Shown here one piece after another: positions 28,000-40,293 of a DNA stretch of 64,000 bases. How positions within the stretch are numbered: the first letter of the stretch is position 1; each line of letters starts with the position of its first letter. A model generated the notes under the pieces. That model was not told the DNA's origin. It searched no databases and was given only the letters and a program-made list of their open reading frames with translations. Source of the stretch: an uncultured Alphaproteobacteria bacterium. Lineage in GTDB: Bacteria > Pseudomonadota > Alphaproteobacteria > Rs-D84. A program made the translations under genes and the position numbers. Location: the NCBI GenBank assembly GCA_944389135.1, contig CALXLG010000001.1, positions 89,421-153,420 on the forward strand, read 5' to 3'.

Positions 28000-28094
28000 A
28001 ATAAGAAAAACGTCTTATGTTTAGGCGTTTTTTATTTAAAAGCTTTTTTATAAGTATTTTTTATGATATAATTTTGTCAAAAGGAGTTTTTAAT

Positions 28095-29303
28095 ATGAAA
28101 AAGCATATGTCTTTATTTGTATGGGCAATTACATTATTTGGTCTATCACCTGTTTGGGCCGCAACCAATTCTGGTACGCGTGCTGCATCCAGTGCGGATT
28201 TAACAGGACAACCGGCAGTACGTGAACGTACACAAGTCAATTATCAAAAATATGAAACGCGTACTTCTACAAAGACATATGATGAAAAAGACGCAAAAAA
28301 TATTTATTATACTCAACCTGCAAATCGCAGTCAGTTGTATAAACAATATGCAAGTGGAAATAATTCAGGAACAACTGTTCGTACAACACGGTCTGAAACT
28401 TATACAAGTGAATTAAAACGTAAGTATTTCTTGGCACATCCTTTCTTCCAACCATTAAAGGGGAAGTTTGGTTCTGTTACAGATTTGTCTTATGCAATGA
28501 GCTCTTATGATATCAAATTAACACCTTTGGAAACTGGGGCTATTTCCGACCCAAATGGTAAATGGGATATGACTCAATTCTCTATCAAGGAAGACTTTAG
28601 CTATGGTATCACAGACCGTATTGCTGTCTTGGCTATGTTGCAATATGATATGTCGGACTATAAGTTTGATTGGTCAACTGCACCAGATGACTCTATGGAT
28701 GATAGCGGTTTAAATATGTTTGGTTTAGGTGCTCAGTGGCGTTTTGTTGATAACGAAGATTGGATTGCAACTGTATCTGGTTATTATCAACATCAAAACG
28801 ACATTTCTAATAATTTCTTGTTAGATTTAAAGGGGGGATATAAAGTTTCTTCTTCTACTATATACGGTGTGGTTCGTGGTTGGTATGTTGCATTGGATGG
28901 TAATTCTTACGGCAACGGTATAGAAGGTACTACTGCAGAAGGAATGAAATCAACCTTGTTCTTAGCTTATAATACAGATGTTGATAATTTGTTTTATGTA
29001 GAAGGTGGAGTTGGTATCTTCAGCGTACTGGATGAAGATTGGACATTGAATTTTGAAGGTTTAATCGGTAATTATGATTGGCACAACCAAGCAAGCTTAA
29101 AGGCTGCAATCGGTTGGCAACCAAATGATTGGATGGCTTTGAATCTGTATGCAAAAACAGCAGTTTATGATTCTGCAGATGGTAAAGCTTTAAGCTTCTG
29201 GGGAACTGATGCAGAAACAGGAAACTTTGTTCGCATGGGAACTGCTGGCATAGATAACTATTCCGAAACATCAATTGGTTTGCAAGCTACGTTCTTGTTC
29301 TGA
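28095..29303 (+). CDS. outer-membrane beta-barrel protein (hypothetical)
   Basis: Signal peptide MKKHMSLFVWAITLFGLSPVWAA; alternating amphipathic beta-strand pattern; C-terminal aromatic LQATFLF; start moved from 28017 to 28095. Confidence 0.5.
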   Translation: MKKHMSLFVWAITLFGLSPVWAATNSGTRAASSADLTGQPAVRERTQVNYQKYETRTSTKTYDEKDAKNIYYTQPANRSQLYKQYASGNNSGTTVRTTRSETYTSELKRKYFLAHPFFQPLKGKFGSVTDLSYAMSSYDIKLTPLETGAISDPNGKWDMTQFSIKEDFSYGITDRIAVLAMLQYDMSDYKFDWSTAPDDSMDDSGLNMFGLGAQWRFVDNEDWIATVSGYYQHQNDISNNFLLDLKGGYKVSSSTIYGVVRGWYVALDGNSYGNGIEGTTAEGMKSTLFLAYNTDVDNLFYVEGGVGIFSVLDEDWTLNFEGLIGNYDWHNQASLKAAIGWQPNDWMALNLYAKTAVYDSADGKALSFWGTDAETGNFVRMGTAGIDNYSETSIGLQATFLF

Positions 29304-32844: not shown

Positions 32845-34725
32845 ATGTCAGAAAAATTTAGAAATATTGTTACAGGGCCAGAAAAATTGGCTAAACAATT
32901 GCGCGAAGCAATAGAAAAAATGTCGCCAAAAGATTATGTAAAGCGTAATAGAGCGAAAAAAAATGCTTCTGGTAAAAAAGATGAAAATGCTGCAATAAAA
33001 GATAATATTGCAACTGGTTCATTAATGGCTATGAAGGGCGGGGCGTGGCTTGCAGCAGGTGGTGCACAGTTTTTATTAACGTTGGCGAGGTGGTTGACAC
33101 TCGACAATCAATTTATTAGAAATATGGAAGAGAAATATAAAAAAATAAATTTAGAGGAAGTAAAAAAATATCAGCCACAAAAGATAAGAAGTTTTGCGAA
33201 AAACTATCCTAATGTATCATCTCATATTATATGGTATTTTATGCTGTCTGCAACGCTTTTTGGGGGTAAATTCGTTGTTAATTCTAAAAATATGAATGAT
33301 TACAAAAAGTCGTTAATAGATTGGATAGATGATTTGAAATGGAATGATATTGATAAAGAAACTCAATATATTTCCCCAAATAGAGAAGATTTTATAAATG
33401 CGGCATTGGAAGAGTATTGGTCAGAAGTTGCAGTTGGGTTAACAGAATTAGAAACTTACAGGGCAATACCGAAAAGGCATTCTGGTGAAAAGCGTTACAC
33501 TAATGGTTTGGGGTGTACATGGCATTATGTATATAACGAAAATGGAAAGTTAAAACAAGTTGGAAATACCAGCAATACAAGGGCAAATTCAAAAGAATAT
33601 AATTACGAACAGGCGAAAAGACATCTTAAATATGAAACATTAAAAAAGTTAAAAACAGCGATGCTTGGCAAGAAAAATATGAATGGCAAATATGCTGTTG
33701 CGTTAATTTTGGCAGGTTATCAAAGACCTGTGGATATTTCACATATTGCTGCAAGAATAGAAAATGCAAATAATGCCCAAGAAGTTGCGGATGCGTTTAT
33801 GTATATAGGGAAAGACGGGCAAAGATGGAAAAATGGGACTTTGAAGCGTCGTTGGGTTTGTGCTGCGTATGCACTAAATTTGATAAATTCGGCGGATTTA
33901 TTAGAAATGAATCGAGATAGTTTTTCAAAGGTTGAATTGAATAATATCATAAGAAATGGACATTTTTTATTAGATGCAGAAACCGTTAAATTTGTTTTGA
34001 GCAGAACGAATTCTAATTCAACTGTGAAAGAATTTCTAAGTGATTTTCCAGAAGGAAAGAAAATATTGGCTCAAGTAGATGCTGTGGACAACAGTAAAAC
34101 AATAAATCTTGAAGTATTTAATCAACAAGATAAAAAAATAGAAAATTCTATGGCTTGTGTAAATAAGGGAGATAAAAAATTTAAACGAAAAAAATTTGAA
34201 GATGCAAAAGATTTGTATGCCAAGGCTATCGAAATAGATCCTGATAATATGAATGCATATACTGCTTTGGCAGAAACTTATAATAAATTAGGGCATAAAA
34301 ATAATTCAATAGAATATTATAAAAAAGTTACTGAAACTGTTTCTGCTTGTAATAAAAGAATGAATAAAAATAAAAGTTTATTGTATGATAGGGATATAAA
34401 AGCAGAAACTTATTATGCTGCCGGAGTGGCTAGGTTTGAAATGGCTGAAATATATAAAAAATCTGGTGATGATAAATTGGCTAATGAAAATTATAACCTG
34501 GCAAAAAAGAATTTTGAAACAGCAATTTATAATTGTAAAAATGGTAGCGAAGAAGCAACTGATTTAAAAGTTTATGAAGATGCTTTGAAACGAGTAAAGG
34601 AAAAATTAAAGACTAAAAAAATTGCTTTTAATTCAGCAAAAAATATTTTGAATAAAGAAATAAAAGAAAAAAATGCTGTATATGCATGGAAGCAGGCAAT
34701 GCGAAGTGATAATAATTTAGCATAA
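32845..34725 (+). CDS. large hypothetical protein with phage-lysozyme-like (GH24-like) central region and C-terminal TPR repeats
   Basis: 626 aa; segment SGEKRYTNGLG..., YAVALILAGYQ, ADAFMYIGKDG...LKRRWVCAAY parallels lambda/P22-type lysozyme motifs (E...AY.D..G, ALxSLxFNxG, ADAFLxWxKAGK...RRRxERALF); C-terminus KFEDAKDLYAKAIEIDPDNMNAYTALAETYNKLG is canonical TPR. Confidence 0.45.
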   Translation: MSEKFRNIVTGPEKLAKQLREAIEKMSPKDYVKRNRAKKNASGKKDENAAIKDNIATGSLMAMKGGAWLAAGGAQFLLTLARWLTLDNQFIRNMEEKYKKINLEEVKKYQPQKIRSFAKNYPNVSSHIIWYFMLSATLFGGKFVVNSKNMNDYKKSLIDWIDDLKWNDIDKETQYISPNREDFINAALEEYWSEVAVGLTELETYRAIPKRHSGEKRYTNGLGCTWHYVYNENGKLKQVGNTSNTRANSKEYNYEQAKRHLKYETLKKLKTAMLGKKNMNGKYAVALILAGYQRPVDISHIAARIENANNAQEVADAFMYIGKDGQRWKNGTLKRRWVCAAYALNLINSADLLEMNRDSFSKVELNNIIRNGHFLLDAETVKFVLSRTNSNSTVKEFLSDFPEGKKILAQVDAVDNSKTINLEVFNQQDKKIENSMACVNKGDKKFKRKKFEDAKDLYAKAIEIDPDNMNAYTALAETYNKLGHKNNSIEYYKKVTETVSACNKRMNKNKSLLYDRDIKAETYYAAGVARFEMAEIYKKSGDDKLANENYNLAKKNFETAIYNCKNGSEEATDLKVYEDALKRVKEKLKTKKIAFNSAKNILNKEIKEKNAVYAWKQAMRSDNNLA

Positions 34726-34735
34726 GGTTGGAAAG

Positions 34736-36754
34736 ATGAATGTGTTTTTGAATTATAATAATAAGCGTTGGAGAAAATATGAAATTGATTTTCAAAAAAT
34801 CGCCAATGCCGTGGTGGGCTCTATGCACAAAGAGTCAGAAGTTTCAATTATACTTACTGATGATAAAGAAATTCATGCTTTAAACCTAAAGTATAGAAAT
34901 ATAGATAAACCAACAAATGTTCTGTCGTTTGAATTAGGAGATGATATTTTATTAGGTGATATATATATATCTTTGGATACTGTTATCAAAGAAGCAAGAG
35001 AAGCAAAAATTTCTGTGGCGGAGCACACTGCACATATGGTGGTTCATGGTATCTTGCATTTATTAGGATATGACCATCTTAATGATAAAGAAGCCAAGGT
35101 TATGGAAAGCAAAGAAATTAAAATATTACAAAAATTAGGCATTAAGAACCCTTATGAAGAAGATGCTTTTGTTTGTAATAGTAAAGAATGCTGCCCTGGT
35201 AATAAGTTTATGTCTTGGTTGAATAAGCTTAATTTTCGTGAAAATAGTTTTTGGCAATACTTTACATTGGCATTTTTAGGTTTTATAACTTCACTTGGCT
35301 TTGCGCCGTTTCATATGTGGTGGGCCAGTTTAATTGGTATTGCCGGGGCGTATAAATGTTTAACACGTATAAATAATGTTGGTAACTTGTTTAAGACTTT
35401 TGTAAAAGTTTTGCCTTTTAGTTTTGTTTATGCTGTATCAATGTTTTGGTGGGTTGTAAATTCTATATACGTTGTACCAGAACTGACACAGCAATTTGCA
35501 ATTTGGACTTTGCCTGCGTTAATAGGAATCGGTATTTTTGGTGGAATAATATTTGCTTTGCCTTTTGTTGTAGTTTTACGTATACGCACGTTTCCGGCGT
35601 GTAGAGCGTTTTTGTTTGCCTCTGCATGGGTTGTGGTTTTATGGCTGCGCGAGTGGTTGTTGACGGGTTTCCCTTGGAACCCTATTGCAAATATAACTAT
35701 GCCTTTCCCTGTTGTTGCAAATTCAATGTCTTTGTGGGGCGCGTTGGGTTTGAGCTTTATAATTATAGGTTTAATCGCGTCTTTGGTTGAGCTGTTATCT
35801 AACCGTAAAAATAAAACAACATATATTTCATTTTTTGTATTTCTTGTTTTGCTGATAGTTGGATCTGTTTACGGTTATAACAATATAAAAAAATCTGACA
35901 ATATGGGTAATGCAACGCCAGTTATTAGAATTGTGCAACCAGCCCAAAGTGCAACCCAGAAAGCTACTCATTCAAGGGCGGACGCATTAAGAAATGCCGA
36001 AGAAAATGTTAAAATGCTTATGCGTTTAGCTTTGCCAGAGTCAGAAAAAGTAGATTTGGTTGTTTTCCCAGAAACATCTTATCCTTTTGTGATTATGGAT
36101 GGCGACTATATGCCAATATCAGATTTTATGAATAAAAATATTGTTGTTGGCTCGCAATATTACTCTGGTGGAAAAATGTATAATTCTATGTTGATAAGCT
36201 CGGAAAATGGCAGCATAGATAAAATTTATAGCAAATCACATTTGGTGCCTTTCGGTGAATATAGACCTTTGGGTGATATTATTCCAACGCCAGGGCAGTT
36301 GGCGTCAGGGCAGGGAGCAGAAATTATAAGCCTAGAACTTAATGGGCGGACTTTAACTTTCGCGCCTGCGATATGTTATGAAATAATCTTTTCAGATTCT
36401 TTGGTACCAAGACAAACACAACCTGATGCCATTATAAATATTACAAATGATACTTGGTTCGGAAGAACGCCTGGAACTTATCAACATCTTGATATGGTAA
36501 GAAGGTATGCAATTGAATCTGGACTGCCTATAATCAGAGCAAATTATTCTGGTATTAGTGCCTTTGTTTCTGCAAGTGGTCAGATTATATCGGCTCTTCC
36601 AATAGCACAATCTGGAATTTTAGATGGTTTTGTTTGGGGGGCGCATATGACACCATATCGCTTTATTGGCAGAGATGGTTGGATGATTGTGATACTATTA
36701 TTTTCTTGTATATGCACGATATCTTTGTATGCAAAAGAAAAGTATAAAAAATAA
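34736..36754 (+). CDS. ybeY-lnt: fused endoribonuclease YbeY + apolipoprotein N-acyltransferase Lnt (single 672-aa ORF)
   Basis: Residues 1-~145 carry YbeY metal site HGILHLLGYDH; from ~aa 157 (internal MSWLNKL) onward, multi-TM N-terminus and CN-hydrolase domain of Lnt (VVFPETSYPF, ICYEIIF); no stop separates them. Confidence 0.75.
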   Translation: MNVFLNYNNKRWRKYEIDFQKIANAVVGSMHKESEVSIILTDDKEIHALNLKYRNIDKPTNVLSFELGDDILLGDIYISLDTVIKEAREAKISVAEHTAHMVVHGILHLLGYDHLNDKEAKVMESKEIKILQKLGIKNPYEEDAFVCNSKECCPGNKFMSWLNKLNFRENSFWQYFTLAFLGFITSLGFAPFHMWWASLIGIAGAYKCLTRINNVGNLFKTFVKVLPFSFVYAVSMFWWVVNSIYVVPELTQQFAIWTLPALIGIGIFGGIIFALPFVVVLRIRTFPACRAFLFASAWVVVLWLREWLLTGFPWNPIANITMPFPVVANSMSLWGALGLSFIIIGLIASLVELLSNRKNKTTYISFFVFLVLLIVGSVYGYNNIKKSDNMGNATPVIRIVQPAQSATQKATHSRADALRNAEENVKMLMRLALPESEKVDLVVFPETSYPFVIMDGDYMPISDFMNKNIVVGSQYYSGGKMYNSMLISSENGSIDKIYSKSHLVPFGEYRPLGDIIPTPGQLASGQGAEIISLELNGRTLTFAPAICYEIIFSDSLVPRQTQPDAIINITNDTWFGRTPGTYQHLDMVRRYAIESGLPIIRANYSGISAFVSASGQIISALPIAQSGILDGFVWGAHMTPYRFIGRDGWMIVILLFSCICTISLYAKEKYKK

Positions 36755-36854: not shown

Positions 36855-37058
36855 TCAATTTTTGAGGTTGTTTAAAACCCAAACTCTTATTGCCGAAGAT
36901 AAGTTCGTTTTTGGTGGGCGATTTGAATCAATGGCAGAAATTATACCTGCAATAGATTGGTTCTTGTTTGCTGCAATTTCTTTTAAAGCGTTTATAAATT
37001 CTTCTTCTAATGATATGCTGGTTTGGTGCCCAGATAAAGATACCGATATTTTTTTCAT
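36855..37058 (-). CDS. ribbon-helix-helix (RHH_4-like) protein
   Basis: 67 aa; MKKISVSLSGHQTSISLEEEFINALKEIA...LSSAIRVWVLNNL matches RHH_4 family; 2-nt gap to upstream gene. Confidence 0.55.
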   Translation of the reverse strand: MKKISVSLSGHQTSISLEEEFINALKEIAANKNQSIAGIISAIDSNRPPKTNLSSAIRVWVLNNLKN

Positions 37059-37060
37059 AA

Positions 37061-37495
37061 TTAATTTTTCCCCGCAATTAAACAGTCGGTTAATGCTTTA
37101 TATGGGTCGTCATATTGCCGTAAAACATTTAATGTCATATTGTCCAACATCATGCATGTCCCAAAAGAATCAAATGCAAACCAAAATAAATCATTTCTGC
37201 CGAATACGGTTTTCCCGCGCATGCGATTTATGTCTGATAAATCTTTGTTTACTTGAACAATATCTGGTACAGGAAATTTGTTGTTAACTGAAAATTCTGT
37301 TGGACCAAAGATATAACCATTGCCAAGATTTATACCACCAACGTCTTTGTATAGGTTTATTATAAATGCAGGTAACATTGCTGCCTGTATCTTTTGTAGC
37401 ATGGTATTTGCTAAATCAATATTTTGTTGCGTTTCGGCAGTCGCAAATGTTGCACCGTGCTTTTTTATGTTGGATAAAAATTCTTCCATTGTCAT
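37061..37495 (-). CDS. SUKH-like (Smi1/Knr4/Syd-like) protein
   Basis: 144 aa; MLPAFIINLYKDVGGINLGNGYIFGP resembles SUKH N-terminal LPxxYxxFLxxxNGG motif; family assignment by pattern only. Confidence 0.35.
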   Translation of the reverse strand: MTMEEFLSNIKKHGATFATAETQQNIDLANTMLQKIQAAMLPAFIINLYKDVGGINLGNGYIFGPTEFSVNNKFPVPDIVQVNKDLSDINRMRGKTVFGRNDLFWFAFDSFGTCMMLDNMTLNVLRQYDDPYKALTDCLIAGKN

Positions 37496-37509
37496 TTTTT
37501 ATCCTTTTA

Positions 37510-38016
37510 TTATTCCATGCCACGTTCCGCGGCAAGCTGGGCTGCAAGTTGAGATAACCTGTCGGCTGTCGCGTTTCCGCCGTCACCACCAGATGCAGTA
37601 TGTGCAGGAACATATATCTTTTTAACGGGGTTAGGTAACCATATTTTTTCATTGCCATATTGTTCAATAATAAATCTATCCAATCTATGAGAGTGGGGAA
37701 AAGTGCTGCACATAAACATGTTGTCTAATTCAAGACCGCCGCCAAAAACAAGTGGTATGCGAAATCTAATAGATAAATTTGCAGGCATTCTTTTCCCTGT
37801 TATTAATCCCATAAATTCATCTTGTGATAGATTCATAAATGCAATTTCTTCGGTAGAGTCTGTCAAAGATTCCATAAATTGACGACATAGATTTTTATAT
37901 CGGGTAAACCAATCAGGTGAAAGTTTTACTTTTTCAGGAGCTATACAAATAATTGGCATGTCTTCCATTTTTAAGGCTGCCAATTTTTGTTCGGCTGTTT
38001 CTTGACTCCAATGCAT
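37510..38016 (-). CDS. hypothetical cytoplasmic protein (168 aa), no family recognised
   Basis: ORF translationally coupled (TGATG overlap) to upstream membrane protein; Ala/Gly-rich C-terminal tail. Confidence 0.4.
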   Translation of the reverse strand: MHWSQETAEQKLAALKMEDMPIICIAPEKVKLSPDWFTRYKNLCRQFMESLTDSTEEIAFMNLSQDEFMGLITGKRMPANLSIRFRIPLVFGGGLELDNMFMCSTFPHSHRLDRFIIEQYGNEKIWLPNPVKKIYVPAHTASGGDGGNATADRLSQLAAQLAAERGME

Positions 38017-38942
38017 CAGATTTTACCTATGTAGCTTATAACCGTGTCAATATATTCAGAGTATGCAGCAAAATTATCTTTGTCTTCTTCAGTAATTGGC
38101 GGGTTAGGGTTATTATTTATATAATTTCTTAATTCTTCTATTGTATTAAACATTAAAATATTTTCAAATTCAGATGTTGCTGCGTCTGGCGCATTAATAA
38201 CAAAGCCATTTGTATCAATATAGATATCTTCAAGTGTGTCAGAGAAAATTTGTGATAGTTTGTCTATCATATTACGGATGTCGGTTGTCTTTATGCCCAC
38301 ACCACCAACCCAAAGCGTCTCATTAGAACCAATTGCAAATAATGCAGGTGTTATACCGTTTATGCGAGGGGATTTTTTTACTGTAAAACCGGCCTTGCTG
38401 AAGATTTCTTGTATTTCTGGATTCTCTTGTGATTGTGGCTTTGGTTGTGAAACAGGGGTAATCGTATTTGTTTGTGTGGCAGATACATAGCCTGTGTTAT
38501 TTACAGGTATATTCAATCTTGGTGGGCGGGCAGATGGTATAGGCGCAGGTGACGGCTGAGTAGCTGTAGGTGCTTTTGCCGTTTCTGCTGGTAATAAATC
38601 TAGTGTTGATGCGTCTGCATTAGTTTTTGTTTCTTTTGATTCTATAATTGGTGTGTTGTTTTTGTGTTTTTCTATATGTACTTTTGGTAGCTGTATTCGT
38701 CTTAGACGTGGACGTATTAAAATATATAACCCAAAAATCATTATGAATACGCATATAACAAAAGATATATAAAATGTTGGACTTATAGAATTTTTGCTTG
38801 CTTGTAATTCGGAAAGATATGTCCAATGTGATGCAGAGAATATATTAAATCCGAAAACGGTATTAAACCAAAAGCTTGCCCCAAGTGTTACTGCAAGCAA
38901 CCAAAGTATTCCAAGTAATATATTATCCAGTCTGATTTTCAT
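38016..38942 (-). CDS. two-TM membrane protein with Pro/Thr-rich linker and ZipA-C-like C-terminal domain
   Basis: 308 aa; TMs at ~7-27 and ~56-77; low-complexity PTATQPSPAPIPSARPP linker; C-terminal SKAGFTVKK...GITPALFAIGSNE parallels E. coli ZipA FtsZ-binding domain QQAGFIFGD...GPALFSLAN (from memory). Confidence 0.35.
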   Translation of the reverse strand: MKIRLDNILLGILWLLAVTLGASFWFNTVFGFNIFSASHWTYLSELQASKNSISPTFYISFVICVFIMIFGLYILIRPRLRRIQLPKVHIEKHKNNTPIIESKETKTNADASTLDLLPAETAKAPTATQPSPAPIPSARPPRLNIPVNNTGYVSATQTNTITPVSQPKPQSQENPEIQEIFSKAGFTVKKSPRINGITPALFAIGSNETLWVGGVGIKTTDIRNMIDKLSQIFSDTLEDIYIDTNGFVINAPDAATSEFENILMFNTIEELRNYINNNPNPPITEEDKDNFAAYSEYIDTVISYIGKI

Positions 38943-38986: not shown

Positions 38987-39664
38987 ATGATTGATACAGA
39001 TAATATTCTTGATGATAAAAAATTACAAAAACTTGCTTTATGGACGGGGGCAGGAAATGATGCCAATGATTTGGCGTATGTTGCGGAATTCGCAATCGCA
39101 AAAAGTATAAATTTAATTTCTGTTGTGCCCGATAATATTAAGGTTATATGGCCGTGGCTAGAAAACAGCAATATTAAAATATATTCACGATTTTATTTGG
39201 AAAGTAAAAGTGATTCGGTTAAAGATATTTCCGAATTAACAAAAAATATAAATACTGCATTTAAACATGGGGCATCTGGTGTTCAAATTTTTACACATTT
39301 TTCAGAATTAGAAAACTTTGTTGGACAAGTTTCTTTAATAAGAGATGATTTGTTCTTTAATAAAGACCTGTTTATAGGTATGGATATTAATGAAGTAGGA
39401 CCTTTTGATTGGGAAATAATAAAAAAGTATTTAGAAAAAATTAGAGCAACCGGAATACTTTTAGTATTACCCGTTGATACAGGTGATAAGTCAGATTTTG
39501 TTGGTAGAATTTTTGGTGCACTGGAATCCTGGAAAAATGACTTTAGCTTTGATTTGCATTTTTCTTTCGGGGAAGTTGGGGTACGTGCCGAGCAAACAGA
39601 ACGCCTGATAAATAGCATATACCCAGCGCTTTCTAATAATTTAAAGTTCTTTGTAAATATTTAG
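38987..39664 (+). CDS. hypothetical protein
   Basis: 225-aa ORF, no signal peptide, alternating beta/alpha-like pattern (possibly TIM-barrel-like); no family recognised. Confidence 0.35.
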   Translation: MIDTDNILDDKKLQKLALWTGAGNDANDLAYVAEFAIAKSINLISVVPDNIKVIWPWLENSNIKIYSRFYLESKSDSVKDISELTKNINTAFKHGASGVQIFTHFSELENFVGQVSLIRDDLFFNKDLFIGMDINEVGPFDWEIIKKYLEKIRATGILLVLPVDTGDKSDFVGRIFGALESWKNDFSFDLHFSFGEVGVRAEQTERLINSIYPALSNNLKFFVNI

Positions 39665-40293
39665 TTCTTTATTACTAAATATTTTGGGGCAACTGTTCCT
39701 GCCTTGTTCTTTTTTTGATATCTAGTGCGAATCGTTTCTAAGCTTGGGGTTGTATATTTCAAAGTGGTTTTTTCTAATTCTTGAATAATCCAATCAAAAT
39801 ATTCCCAATGGTCAGTACCTATTATTATTTCACCGTTTGTGGTTAGCTTATCGGCCAGTGTTTGTAAAAAAGGTGCACTTAAAAGGCGGCGCTTTTCATG
39901 TTTTGCTTTTGGCCAAGGGTCAGGATGAAGAACCCATATTTGTTCAAATTTCGAATCGGTATTCTTTAGAAAATCACGAACGTCATCCGCAAAAATACGA
40001 ATGTTTTTATATTCGTTGCGAGTCGAATTATTTTCATCTGCAATTGCAGATAACAGTGATGCAACCCCGTTCATAAAAGGTTCTGCGCCAATAACTATCT
40101 TTTCTGGGTTTGTCTGCGCCAATTCCCGTAAATGTTCGCCCGCACCAAAGCCAATCTCTAATATCGTCGATTCGTTACTATTGGCTTTTGTTGGCAAAAT
40201 TTGTGGTAAAACGTTGTCTATTAACCACTGTTGACGGGCAGAAAGTTTTTTGCCGTGCCGGCGTCCAAATGTTCTTATTTCTTGTTTTTCCAT
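39661..40293 (-). CDS. trmB: tRNA (guanine46-N7)-methyltransferase
   Basis: 210 aa; SAM motif LEIGFGAGEH, conserved ...IFADD... and DPWPK motifs of TrmB. Confidence 0.8.
   Translation of the reverse strand: MEKQEIRTFGRRHGKKLSARQQWLIDNVLPQILPTKANSNESTILEIGFGAGEHLRELAQTNPEKIVIGAEPFMNGVASLLSAIADENNSTRNEYKNIRIFADDVRDFLKNTDSKFEQIWVLHPDPWPKAKHEKRRLLSAPFLQTLADKLTTNGEIIIGTDHWEYFDWIIQELEKTTLKYTTPSLETIRTRYQKKNKAGTVAPKYLVIKN

Follow-up and report, generated by a model that had tools for sequence, protein, structure and literature searches.

What are the four closely packed genes that occupy positions 36855-38942 (minus strand) of the window analysed here, a 64,000-nt stretch from an uncultured alphaproteobacterium of the lineage Rs-D84 (contig CALXLG010000001.1)? 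An original prediction, made from the letters alone, had offered an envelope or division-associated module with a ZipA-like protein, a toxin/immunity-like cassette and an undescribed stress system as possible answers. In our view, the operon derives from a polymorphic-toxin cassette that has been exapted ("domesticated") and would now function as a non-catalytic, membrane-tethered complex, and we place the probability of this reading at roughly 0.55. The ancestry is well supported, and the present mechanism is what we infer. In the order of the window, the genes are the following.

36855-37058, minus strand: gene 4, 67 amino acids (aa), a basic RHH_4 ribbon-helix-helix protein (isoelectric point, pI, 9.7)
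37061-37495, minus strand: gene 3, 144 aa, a diverged YrhA-family/SUKH-superfamily immunity-type protein
37510-38016, minus strand: gene 2, 168 aa, a stand-alone YhhZ-type toxin domain of the HNH (His-Me finger) class, predicted to be catalytically degenerate
38016-38942, minus strand: gene 1, 308 aa, a predicted inner-membrane protein in which a disordered linker joins a transmembrane (TM) hairpin to a cytoplasmic PD-(D/E)xK/NERD-like domain

The list of open reading frames (ORFs) and a direct reading of the strand agree with the layout as first described: genes 1 and 2 overlap in a TGATG stop/start at 38014-38018, the 14 nt between genes 2 and 3 hold an AAGGA Shine-Dalgarno-like motif, and only 2 nt separate genes 3 and 4.

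The answer begins with gene 2, for which the original prediction had recognised no match. It is true that no Pfam model exists for this protein, but a family-wide profile (A5) assigns it to an HNH toxin domain with the beta-beta-alpha-metal fold. In hhalign comparisons, A5 matched an HNH protein of an IncHI2 plasmid (98.3%, E 2e-14), YhhZ of Escherichia coli K-12 (97.5%, E 6e-12) and the LXG toxin of phage SPR (97.5%). The narrow profile of the window clade (A1) did not match YhhZ, and the link between gene 2 and YhhZ is transitive through A5 only. A search of PDB sequences with the gene 2 profile and a Foldseek search of gene 2 against the PDB gave nothing significant, and Pfam returned no matches on the long-form relatives of gene 2. 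The carriers of this domain belong to secretion systems of type VI (T6SS) and type VII (T7SS), plasmids and loci with a coupling protein (T4CP) of the type IV secretion system (T4SS); YhhZ has the architecture T6SS_HCP plus HNH, and the SPR protein is LXG plus HNH. Because one domain rides on such different carriers, it bears the hallmark of a polymorphic-toxin C-terminal domain. The SPR gene is followed by a gene for a SUKH protein that passes the Pfam cutoff (SMI1_KNR4, 34.5 bits). Gene 2 has no delivery domain and begins directly at the toxin domain, with its residue 16 aligned to residue 256 of YhhZ; no trafficking domain of the Hcp, LXG, Rhs or PAAR kind is fused to it.

A described counterpart is the YhhZ-YrhA pair of E. 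coli, in which a T6SS toxin of the Hcp-ET1 type (His-Me finger group 32), with its HNH domain fused to Hcp, is accompanied by its immunity gene. One source describes YhhZ-type proteins as Hcp-fused HNH toxins (PMC5714182), and Hcp-ET1 is an HNH-DNase that is delivered by the T6SS and has a cognate immunity protein (PMC6730261). The alignment of gene 2 spans the last ~130 residues of YhhZ and takes in the helices before the HNH motif, the P..GG..N core and, behind it, P.P.G.[VI]Y; the toxin gene precedes the immunity gene in both cases, and relatives of gene 3 fall in the NCBIfam YrhA family. However, the operon differs from YhhZ-YrhA in that it lacks Hcp or any other delivery domain, has R84-F85 in place of HH and PHS in place of PYH, is chromosomal, syntenic and vertically conserved, contains gene 1 and the RHH_4 gene as additional partners, and encodes a gene 3 product that scores under the YrhA cutoff. 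The LXG (T7SS) toxin of SPbeta-family Bacillus prophages has the same HNH domain and is also followed by a small SUKH protein, but it is a secreted, prophage-borne protein of 628 aa with an LXG domain and an intact VHHKLP...PYH. The HNH and YrhA pair of IncHI2 plasmids is the best sequence match to the long alphaproteobacterial forms of gene 2 (E 1e-10 to 4e-8) and resembles them in its adjacent YrhA gene and its association with conjugation/T4SS genes, whereas its HNH protein is plasmid-borne, about 350 aa long, above the Pfam HNH cutoff, and has an unrelated N-terminal region and intact histidines. Pairs of an HNH endonuclease and a YrhA-family protein occur on 458 plasmids, 433 of them conjugative; examples are found on a Kosakonia plasmid (L096:6377-7930) and on a Salmonella IncHI2A plasmid (L097:6359-7936), in which the pair adjoins the TrhH/TraG transfer genes. 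The plasmid pair looks like an uncharacterised toxin-immunity pair linked to conjugation.

The chemistry of the domain was examined in its core.

37660-37785, minus strand: HNH core of gene 2 (aa 78-119), delimited by alignments A1 and A5 and by a MAFFT alignment with YhhZ and the plasmid proteins

Within this core, the window protein retains P88, G92, G93 and N99, which are structural positions only. In direct alignment, the enterobacterial and Bacillus toxins read V-H-H-K-x-P/S...GG...N-L...P-Y-H. The T4CP-linked alphaproteobacterial forms read H-[LI]-[KR]-x-P...P-[FY]-H; these forms keep the first (metal-ligand) His and the helix His and have already lost the second His, which is the general base. 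In the window-type forms, [RKM]-F-[KR]-x-P, the helix His is lost too. The window gene 2 has F85 in place of the general-base His, R84 in place of the metal-ligand His and S109 in place of the helix His, and its F106 and D113 stand where the T4CP-linked forms have two more His. The general-base position (in beta-1, three residues before the Pro) is hydrophobic in all of the alphaproteobacterial members aligned. By canonical criteria, the gene 2 product is predicted to be unable to act as an HNH nuclease. The loss of catalytic residues from a scaffold that is itself kept has a likeness in the degenerate His-Me fingers that serve as binding domains, such as Smad MH1, and "active site deterioration" of His-Me fingers is noted in the literature (PMC5714182). 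Unlike the fingers of the Smad MH1 type, gene 2 belongs to an unrelated lineage and has retained its immunity partner, and its DNA binding is putative.

The partner is gene 3, which begins 14 nt downstream of gene 2, and an immunity-type gene of this family is paired with the relatives of gene 2 in every context seen. The window protein matches the NCBIfam YrhA family (NF038335) below its cutoff of 55 (26.6 bits, E 4.7e-6). The homologs beside the T4CP-linked HNH genes exceed this cutoff (L095_g3, 72.9 bits; L092_g3, 66.6 bits), the homologs in L088, L091 and L093 match the family at E 1e-8 to 1e-9, and Pfam SUKH families give sub-threshold matches in 5 of 20 clade members. The window-clade profile is tied to the distant homologs by hhalign at 88-95%. 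Because intermediate homologs pass the YrhA cutoff and because of these hhalign ties, we regard gene 3 as encoding a diverged YrhA/SUKH immunity-type protein, and the SUKH-like label that it had been given was right. The window-clade profile (A4) did not match the plasmid YrhA, and a PDB sequence search with the gene 3 profile returned nothing significant. Taken on their alignments, genes 2 and 3 are well supported as descendants of an HNH-toxin/SUKH-immunity pair.

The operon is real, functional and core to its clade. The window proteins were used to search 85 related loci by tblastn for presence, order and orientation. Genes 1, 2 and 3 are present in 85/85 loci and gene 4 in 84/85, in constant order and orientation; among the neighbours, a divergent 225-aa gene is found in 83 loci, YbeY-Lnt in 80 and TrmB in 79. 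A relative of gene 2 is encoded in 250 GTDB species-representative genomes, including complete circular metagenome-assembled genomes (MAGs) of 0.72 and 0.96 Mb; conservation of this extent goes far beyond chance. Genes 1 and 2 have about 470-490 homologs each, all from uncultured Alphaproteobacteria of the gut, rumen or termite, and the named sources are MAGs of "Candidatus Enterousia" or "Rickettsiales bacterium". Ca. Enterousia is placed in the order Rs-D84, a lineage whose genomes are reduced and which has neither a tricarboxylic acid cycle nor a respiratory chain (PMC12306168). The median identity to the window is 62.5% for gene 2 (58-73% across the window clade), 65.7% for gene 4, 58.7% for gene 3 and 46.4% for gene 1, compared with 69.7% for TrmB and 58.4% for YbeY-Lnt. 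The ratio of nonsynonymous to synonymous substitution rates (dN/dS), computed for eight genes on 16-18 close locus pairs, is 0.046 for gene 2, 0.067 for gene 3, 0.077 for gene 4 and 0.131 for gene 1; the reference values are 0.056 for gltX, 0.097 for trmB and 0.130 for ybeY-lnt. All four genes are under strong purifying selection, and gene 2 has the lowest ratio of the eight.

Gene 1 has 494 homologs at 45-61% identity. Its anatomy had been read correctly from the start: the N-terminus holds two TM segments, the linker is rich in Pro, Thr and Gln, and a conserved domain forms the C-terminus.

38709-38921, minus strand: TM hairpin (TM1, about aa 8-30; TM2, about aa 55-78), predicted from hydropathy and charge
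38511-38528, minus strand: RPPRLN linear motif (aa 139-144) in an otherwise variable linker
38019-38435, minus strand: acidic C-terminal domain (aa 170-308; pI 4.25) with a predicted restriction-endonuclease-like fold

The periplasmic loop of the hairpin carries a conserved motif, F[ND]I[FL]S..HW.Y, that is also present in distant gene 1-like proteins, and then comes a basic RPRLRRIQLPK stretch. Because of this basic stretch after the hairpin, the C-terminus is predicted to be cytoplasmic (positive-inside rule). Alignment A2 shows W14, F24, G31, F32, W40, Q47 and A48 to be invariant; in the linker motif, R139, P140 and P141 never vary and the conservation of L143 is at least 90%, and T4CP-linked gene 1-like proteins have related motifs, [KR]RP.P.R, in their linkers. 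The C-terminal domain (~139 aa) was modelled by AlphaFold2 (AF2) with a confidence (pLDDT) of 91.6 as a PD-(D/E)xK/NERD-like fold with the restriction-endonuclease-like alpha-beta-beta-beta-alpha-beta core. Pfam NERD (PF08378) is matched below its cutoff by the homologs in L090 (E 0.016) and L092 (E 0.12) and is not matched by the window protein; a PDB sequence search with the profile of this domain gave nothing significant. No conserved acidic/Lys triad of the D...(D/E)xK catalytic motif is present in alignments A2 and A3 or in the wider alignment of the family. On the model, gene 1 is predicted to have a nuclease-type fold without the catalytic motif. It differs from the NERD/PD-(D/E)xK domains of Mrr, Can2, NucS, Hjc and YraN in that the catalytic motif is not conserved, the domain is strongly acidic and joined to a TM hairpin through a disordered linker, and a hairpin of ~25 aa is deleted in the window clade.

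The similarity of this domain to ZipA_C, suggested by eye in the original prediction, is refuted by sequence and by predicted fold. PF04354 was not matched at E<=1, a profile search of the PDB chain sequences, among which the solved ZipA C-domain structures are expected, returned no ZipA, and the globular domain does not have the ZipA_C fold. ZipA and gene 1 have only their layout in common, namely a membrane anchor, a P/Q-rich linker and a globular cytoplasmic domain; they differ in fold and in the number of TM segments (one in ZipA, two in gene 1) and have no sequence similarity.

The RHH_4 identity of gene 4 stands on a full-length match to PF13467 (E 6.5e-22, 77.8 bits against a gathering score of 25; residues 2-64 on profile positions 2-66 of 67). 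Orthologue-like genes that are 42-48% identical occur in Sinorhizobium, Methylobacterium and Sphingomonadales, and their neighbours vary: in Sinorhizobium, the order is sspB-DUF4169-RHH_4, convergent with asmA, in Qipengyuania the gene lies near murA, and in Sphingomonas it follows cobS-cobT. Because of this distribution and these neighbourhoods, we consider the RHH_4 gene to be of older origin and widely conserved among Alphaproteobacteria, and the trio of genes 1 to 3 to have joined it. The idea of a toxin/immunity-like cassette with its own RHH regulator therefore stands in its first part, the descent of genes 2 and 3, but not in its second, since gene 4 is not a dedicated regulator that arrived with the cassette. 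In L091 and L093, the whole module from gene 1 to RHH_4 abuts a convergent asmA gene. Convergence of RHH_4 with a large AsmA-family gene is seen in Sinorhizobium meliloti (L100:6145-11477) and at L091:6994-10102 and L093:8983-12067, and it suggests an ancient RHH_4-asmA neighbourhood.

Two main arrangements of the trio can be distinguished. Architecture A, which consists of a gene 1-like gene, a short gene 2, gene 3 and RHH_4, is found in the window clade and in L090, L091 and L093. The L090 module has ybeY-lnt on one side, with different genes at its other end, and asmA adjoins the modules of L091 and L093; the genes of this architecture move as a unit. In architecture B, a gene 1-like gene in one or two copies is joined by a coupling protein of the VirD4/TraG type, whose tail is acidic, then by a longer gene 2 and gene 3, with homology recognised by hidden Markov models and BLAST. 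It is present in L092, L095 and L099 and partly in L086/L087/L094, and a bare pair of genes 2 and 3 occurs in L088.

L092:1145-7719, L095:3-4854 and L099:8891-13339: architecture B loci of uncultured Alphaproteobacteria (GC content 31-51%)

The L099 locus is chromosomal, with rpsA, mscL, rsmB and ftsZAQ-ddl-murBCG around it and no VirB genes nearby. Relatives of the coupling protein number more than 1,700, and many of them are 57-63% identical and lie on long contigs. Architecture B could represent either an effector-immunity set of a T4SS or a system built on a coupling protein and not yet described.

The association with coupling proteins raises the explanation that the operon itself is an accessory or substrate module of a T4SS, with a VirD4-type T4CP encoded elsewhere in the genome, gene 2 as its substrate or adaptor, gene 3 as a chaperone or immunity protein and gene 1 as the membrane partner of the T4CP. 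This is consistent with the contiguity of the gene 1-like gene, the T4CP gene and the relatives of genes 2 and 3 in L092, L095, L099 and L086/L087, with the large size and the conservation of the T4CP family in uncultured Alphaproteobacteria, and with the loop and linker motifs that are common to the T4CP-linked and T4CP-less versions of gene 1. However, a T4CP is absent from the 64-kb window and from the 8 kb on either side of the module in the 85 loci, RHH_4 and T4CP occur together in no locus seen, the clusters of short-form gene 2 and those of the T4CP share no listed longest-contig size, which is weak evidence for separate genomes, and the long N-terminal region and C-terminal tail that the T4CP-linked forms possess are missing from the window gene 2; we regard this explanation as unlikely. 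That the operon is a still-active toxin-immunity cassette, serving addiction or competition, appears to us distinctly improbable. In such a cassette, gene 2 would owe its toxicity to non-canonical catalysis or to tight binding of DNA, gene 3 would neutralise it, and the RHH_4 protein would autoregulate the operon as in type II toxin-antitoxin systems; the order of toxin and immunity genes, their tight coupling, their unambiguous descent from polymorphic toxin-immunity pairs and the presence of an RHH gene within the operon all agree with this. Nevertheless, all three canonical histidines and the delivery domain are missing, more than 80 species carry the genes at one fixed, syntenic place on the chromosome, the toxin domain is not polymorphic, no mobile-element genes are present and the GC content is like that of the flanks, a dN/dS of 0.046 is typical of core genes and not of conflict genes, the RHH_4 gene is ancestral and has unrelated neighbours elsewhere, and PADLOC found no match.

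The HNH and PD-(D/E)xK folds are typical of defence islands, and related toxin domains are carried by plasmids and prophages, which might point to a horizontally acquired defence or mobile island between lnt and trmB. We find this hardly credible: the best match of seven proteins to the PADLOC anti-phage models is no better than E 0.06, no integrase, tRNA or repeats were found near the operon, its GC content of 0.31-0.38 is similar to that of the window as a whole (mean 0.365), 79-80 of the 85 loci have the module at the same position, selection is strongly purifying, and the catalytic motifs are absent. A division or envelope module in which gene 1 acts as a ZipA-like tether of FtsZ would draw on the common layout of a membrane anchor, a Pro/Thr/Gln-rich linker and a globular cytoplasmic C-domain; with the homology already refuted, we give this very little credence.

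Polymorphic toxins are known for toxin-domain polymorphism, mobility and rapid evolution, and the operon displays none of these. As an exapted cassette, it would work as follows. The gene 2 product would no longer cut DNA and would serve as a non-catalytic module that binds nucleic acid or protein, the immunity-derived gene 3 product would still hold it, and gene 1 would tether their complex to the inner membrane, with the invariant RPPRLN motif and the acidic C-domain as candidate docking sites. Gene 4, as an ancestral DNA-binding protein that would be co-transcribed with the trio, would supply DNA binding or regulation and may set the expression of the operon. We favour, as the most likely role, a membrane-associated DNA-handling or regulatory function that would be left over from a T4SS-coupled ancestor. 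A more specific proposal is that the trio, with its TM-hairpin NERD-like pseudo-nuclease, dead HNH domain and SUKH protein, constitutes an undescribed, near-essential membrane machine of gut Alphaproteobacteria with reduced genomes, derived from an exapted T4SS-coupled effector-immunity module; we put this forward tentatively and would not expect it to be correct in all its parts. The operon is of a known kind, the polymorphic-toxin/immunity pair, and it is unusual in its presumably dead toxin chemistry, its housekeeping-level constraint and its novel membrane partner.

Toxin-immunity cassettes are normally fast-evolving, mobile conflict genes, and the operon departs from that rule. The delivery domain and the catalytic histidines are gone, yet the pair is kept throughout a bacterial order whose genomes of ~0.7-1.6 Mb have shed nearly all dispensable genes, and a constraint on gene 2 as strong as that on a tRNA synthetase points to a non-toxic job for the HNH/SUKH pair. 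If the proposal of a membrane machine is true, this would be a rare documented case of a toxin and its immunity protein surviving as a core complex after the toxin chemistry was lost, and the sister set of a gene 1-like protein, a VirD4-like ATPase, an HNH protein and a SUKH protein without adjacent VirB genes would be an equally undescribed coupling-protein-based system. The chromosomal association of the HNH/SUKH pair with a VirD4-type coupling protein is widespread in uncultured Alphaproteobacteria and makes it a candidate T4SS-linked effector-immunity system. The findings also point to two undescribed protein families, that of gene 1 and that of the stand-alone HNH domain (for which Pfam has no model). 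In practical terms, a ZipA mis-annotation is corrected, and four "hypothetical" genes in hundreds of gut MAGs receive usable names.

The surroundings of the operon are those of an ordinary chromosome, and the window encodes RecA, SerS, FtsK, SecD, BipA and MgsA. The operon is flanked by two conserved genes, and a divergent gene that starts 44 bp from the start of gene 1 lies between it and trmB.

34736-36754, plus strand: YbeY-Lnt fusion
38987-39664, plus strand: divergent 225-aa gene, co-occurring in 83/85 loci
39661-40293, minus strand: TrmB

The module had been said to occupy the slot of metK. MetK is indeed absent from the 64-kb window, as it is from all 103 loci searched, but the occupancy of this slot is incidental because the same module adjoins asmA in other lineages. 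An Rfam scan gave zero matches, and promoter- and terminator-like sites were not above shuffled controls. In the literature on RHH_4/PF13467 and on Rs-D84, nothing was found about the four-gene module.

The divergent 225-aa gene may belong to the module. Its product is acidic and matched no Pfam, NCBIfam or PDB family, its dN/dS is 0.108, and its stop and that of the convergent trmB have 4 nt in common; L090 has a homolog next to the module and L091 one 3 kb from it. Farther away, a 428-aa ORF at 28017-29303 (plus strand), after ftsK and among housekeeping genes, has no Pfam family at E<=1e-5. A 626-aa protein with TPR repeats near its C-terminus is encoded at 32845-34725 (plus strand) and is conserved upstream of ybeY-lnt; its orthologues have faint-to-weak Phage_lysozyme matches in precomputed annotation, and a MucR/ROS gene adjoins it in related loci. 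The YbeY-Lnt fusion is a single ORF of 672 aa with the YbeY endoribonuclease at residues 13-134 and a complete Lnt (LNT_N plus CN_hydrolase). Because 80/85 related loci have the fusion, as do more distant lineages (596-703 aa), an assembly artefact is excluded; the fusion joins an rRNA-maturation enzyme with a lipoprotein-maturation enzyme, which is an unusual pairing.

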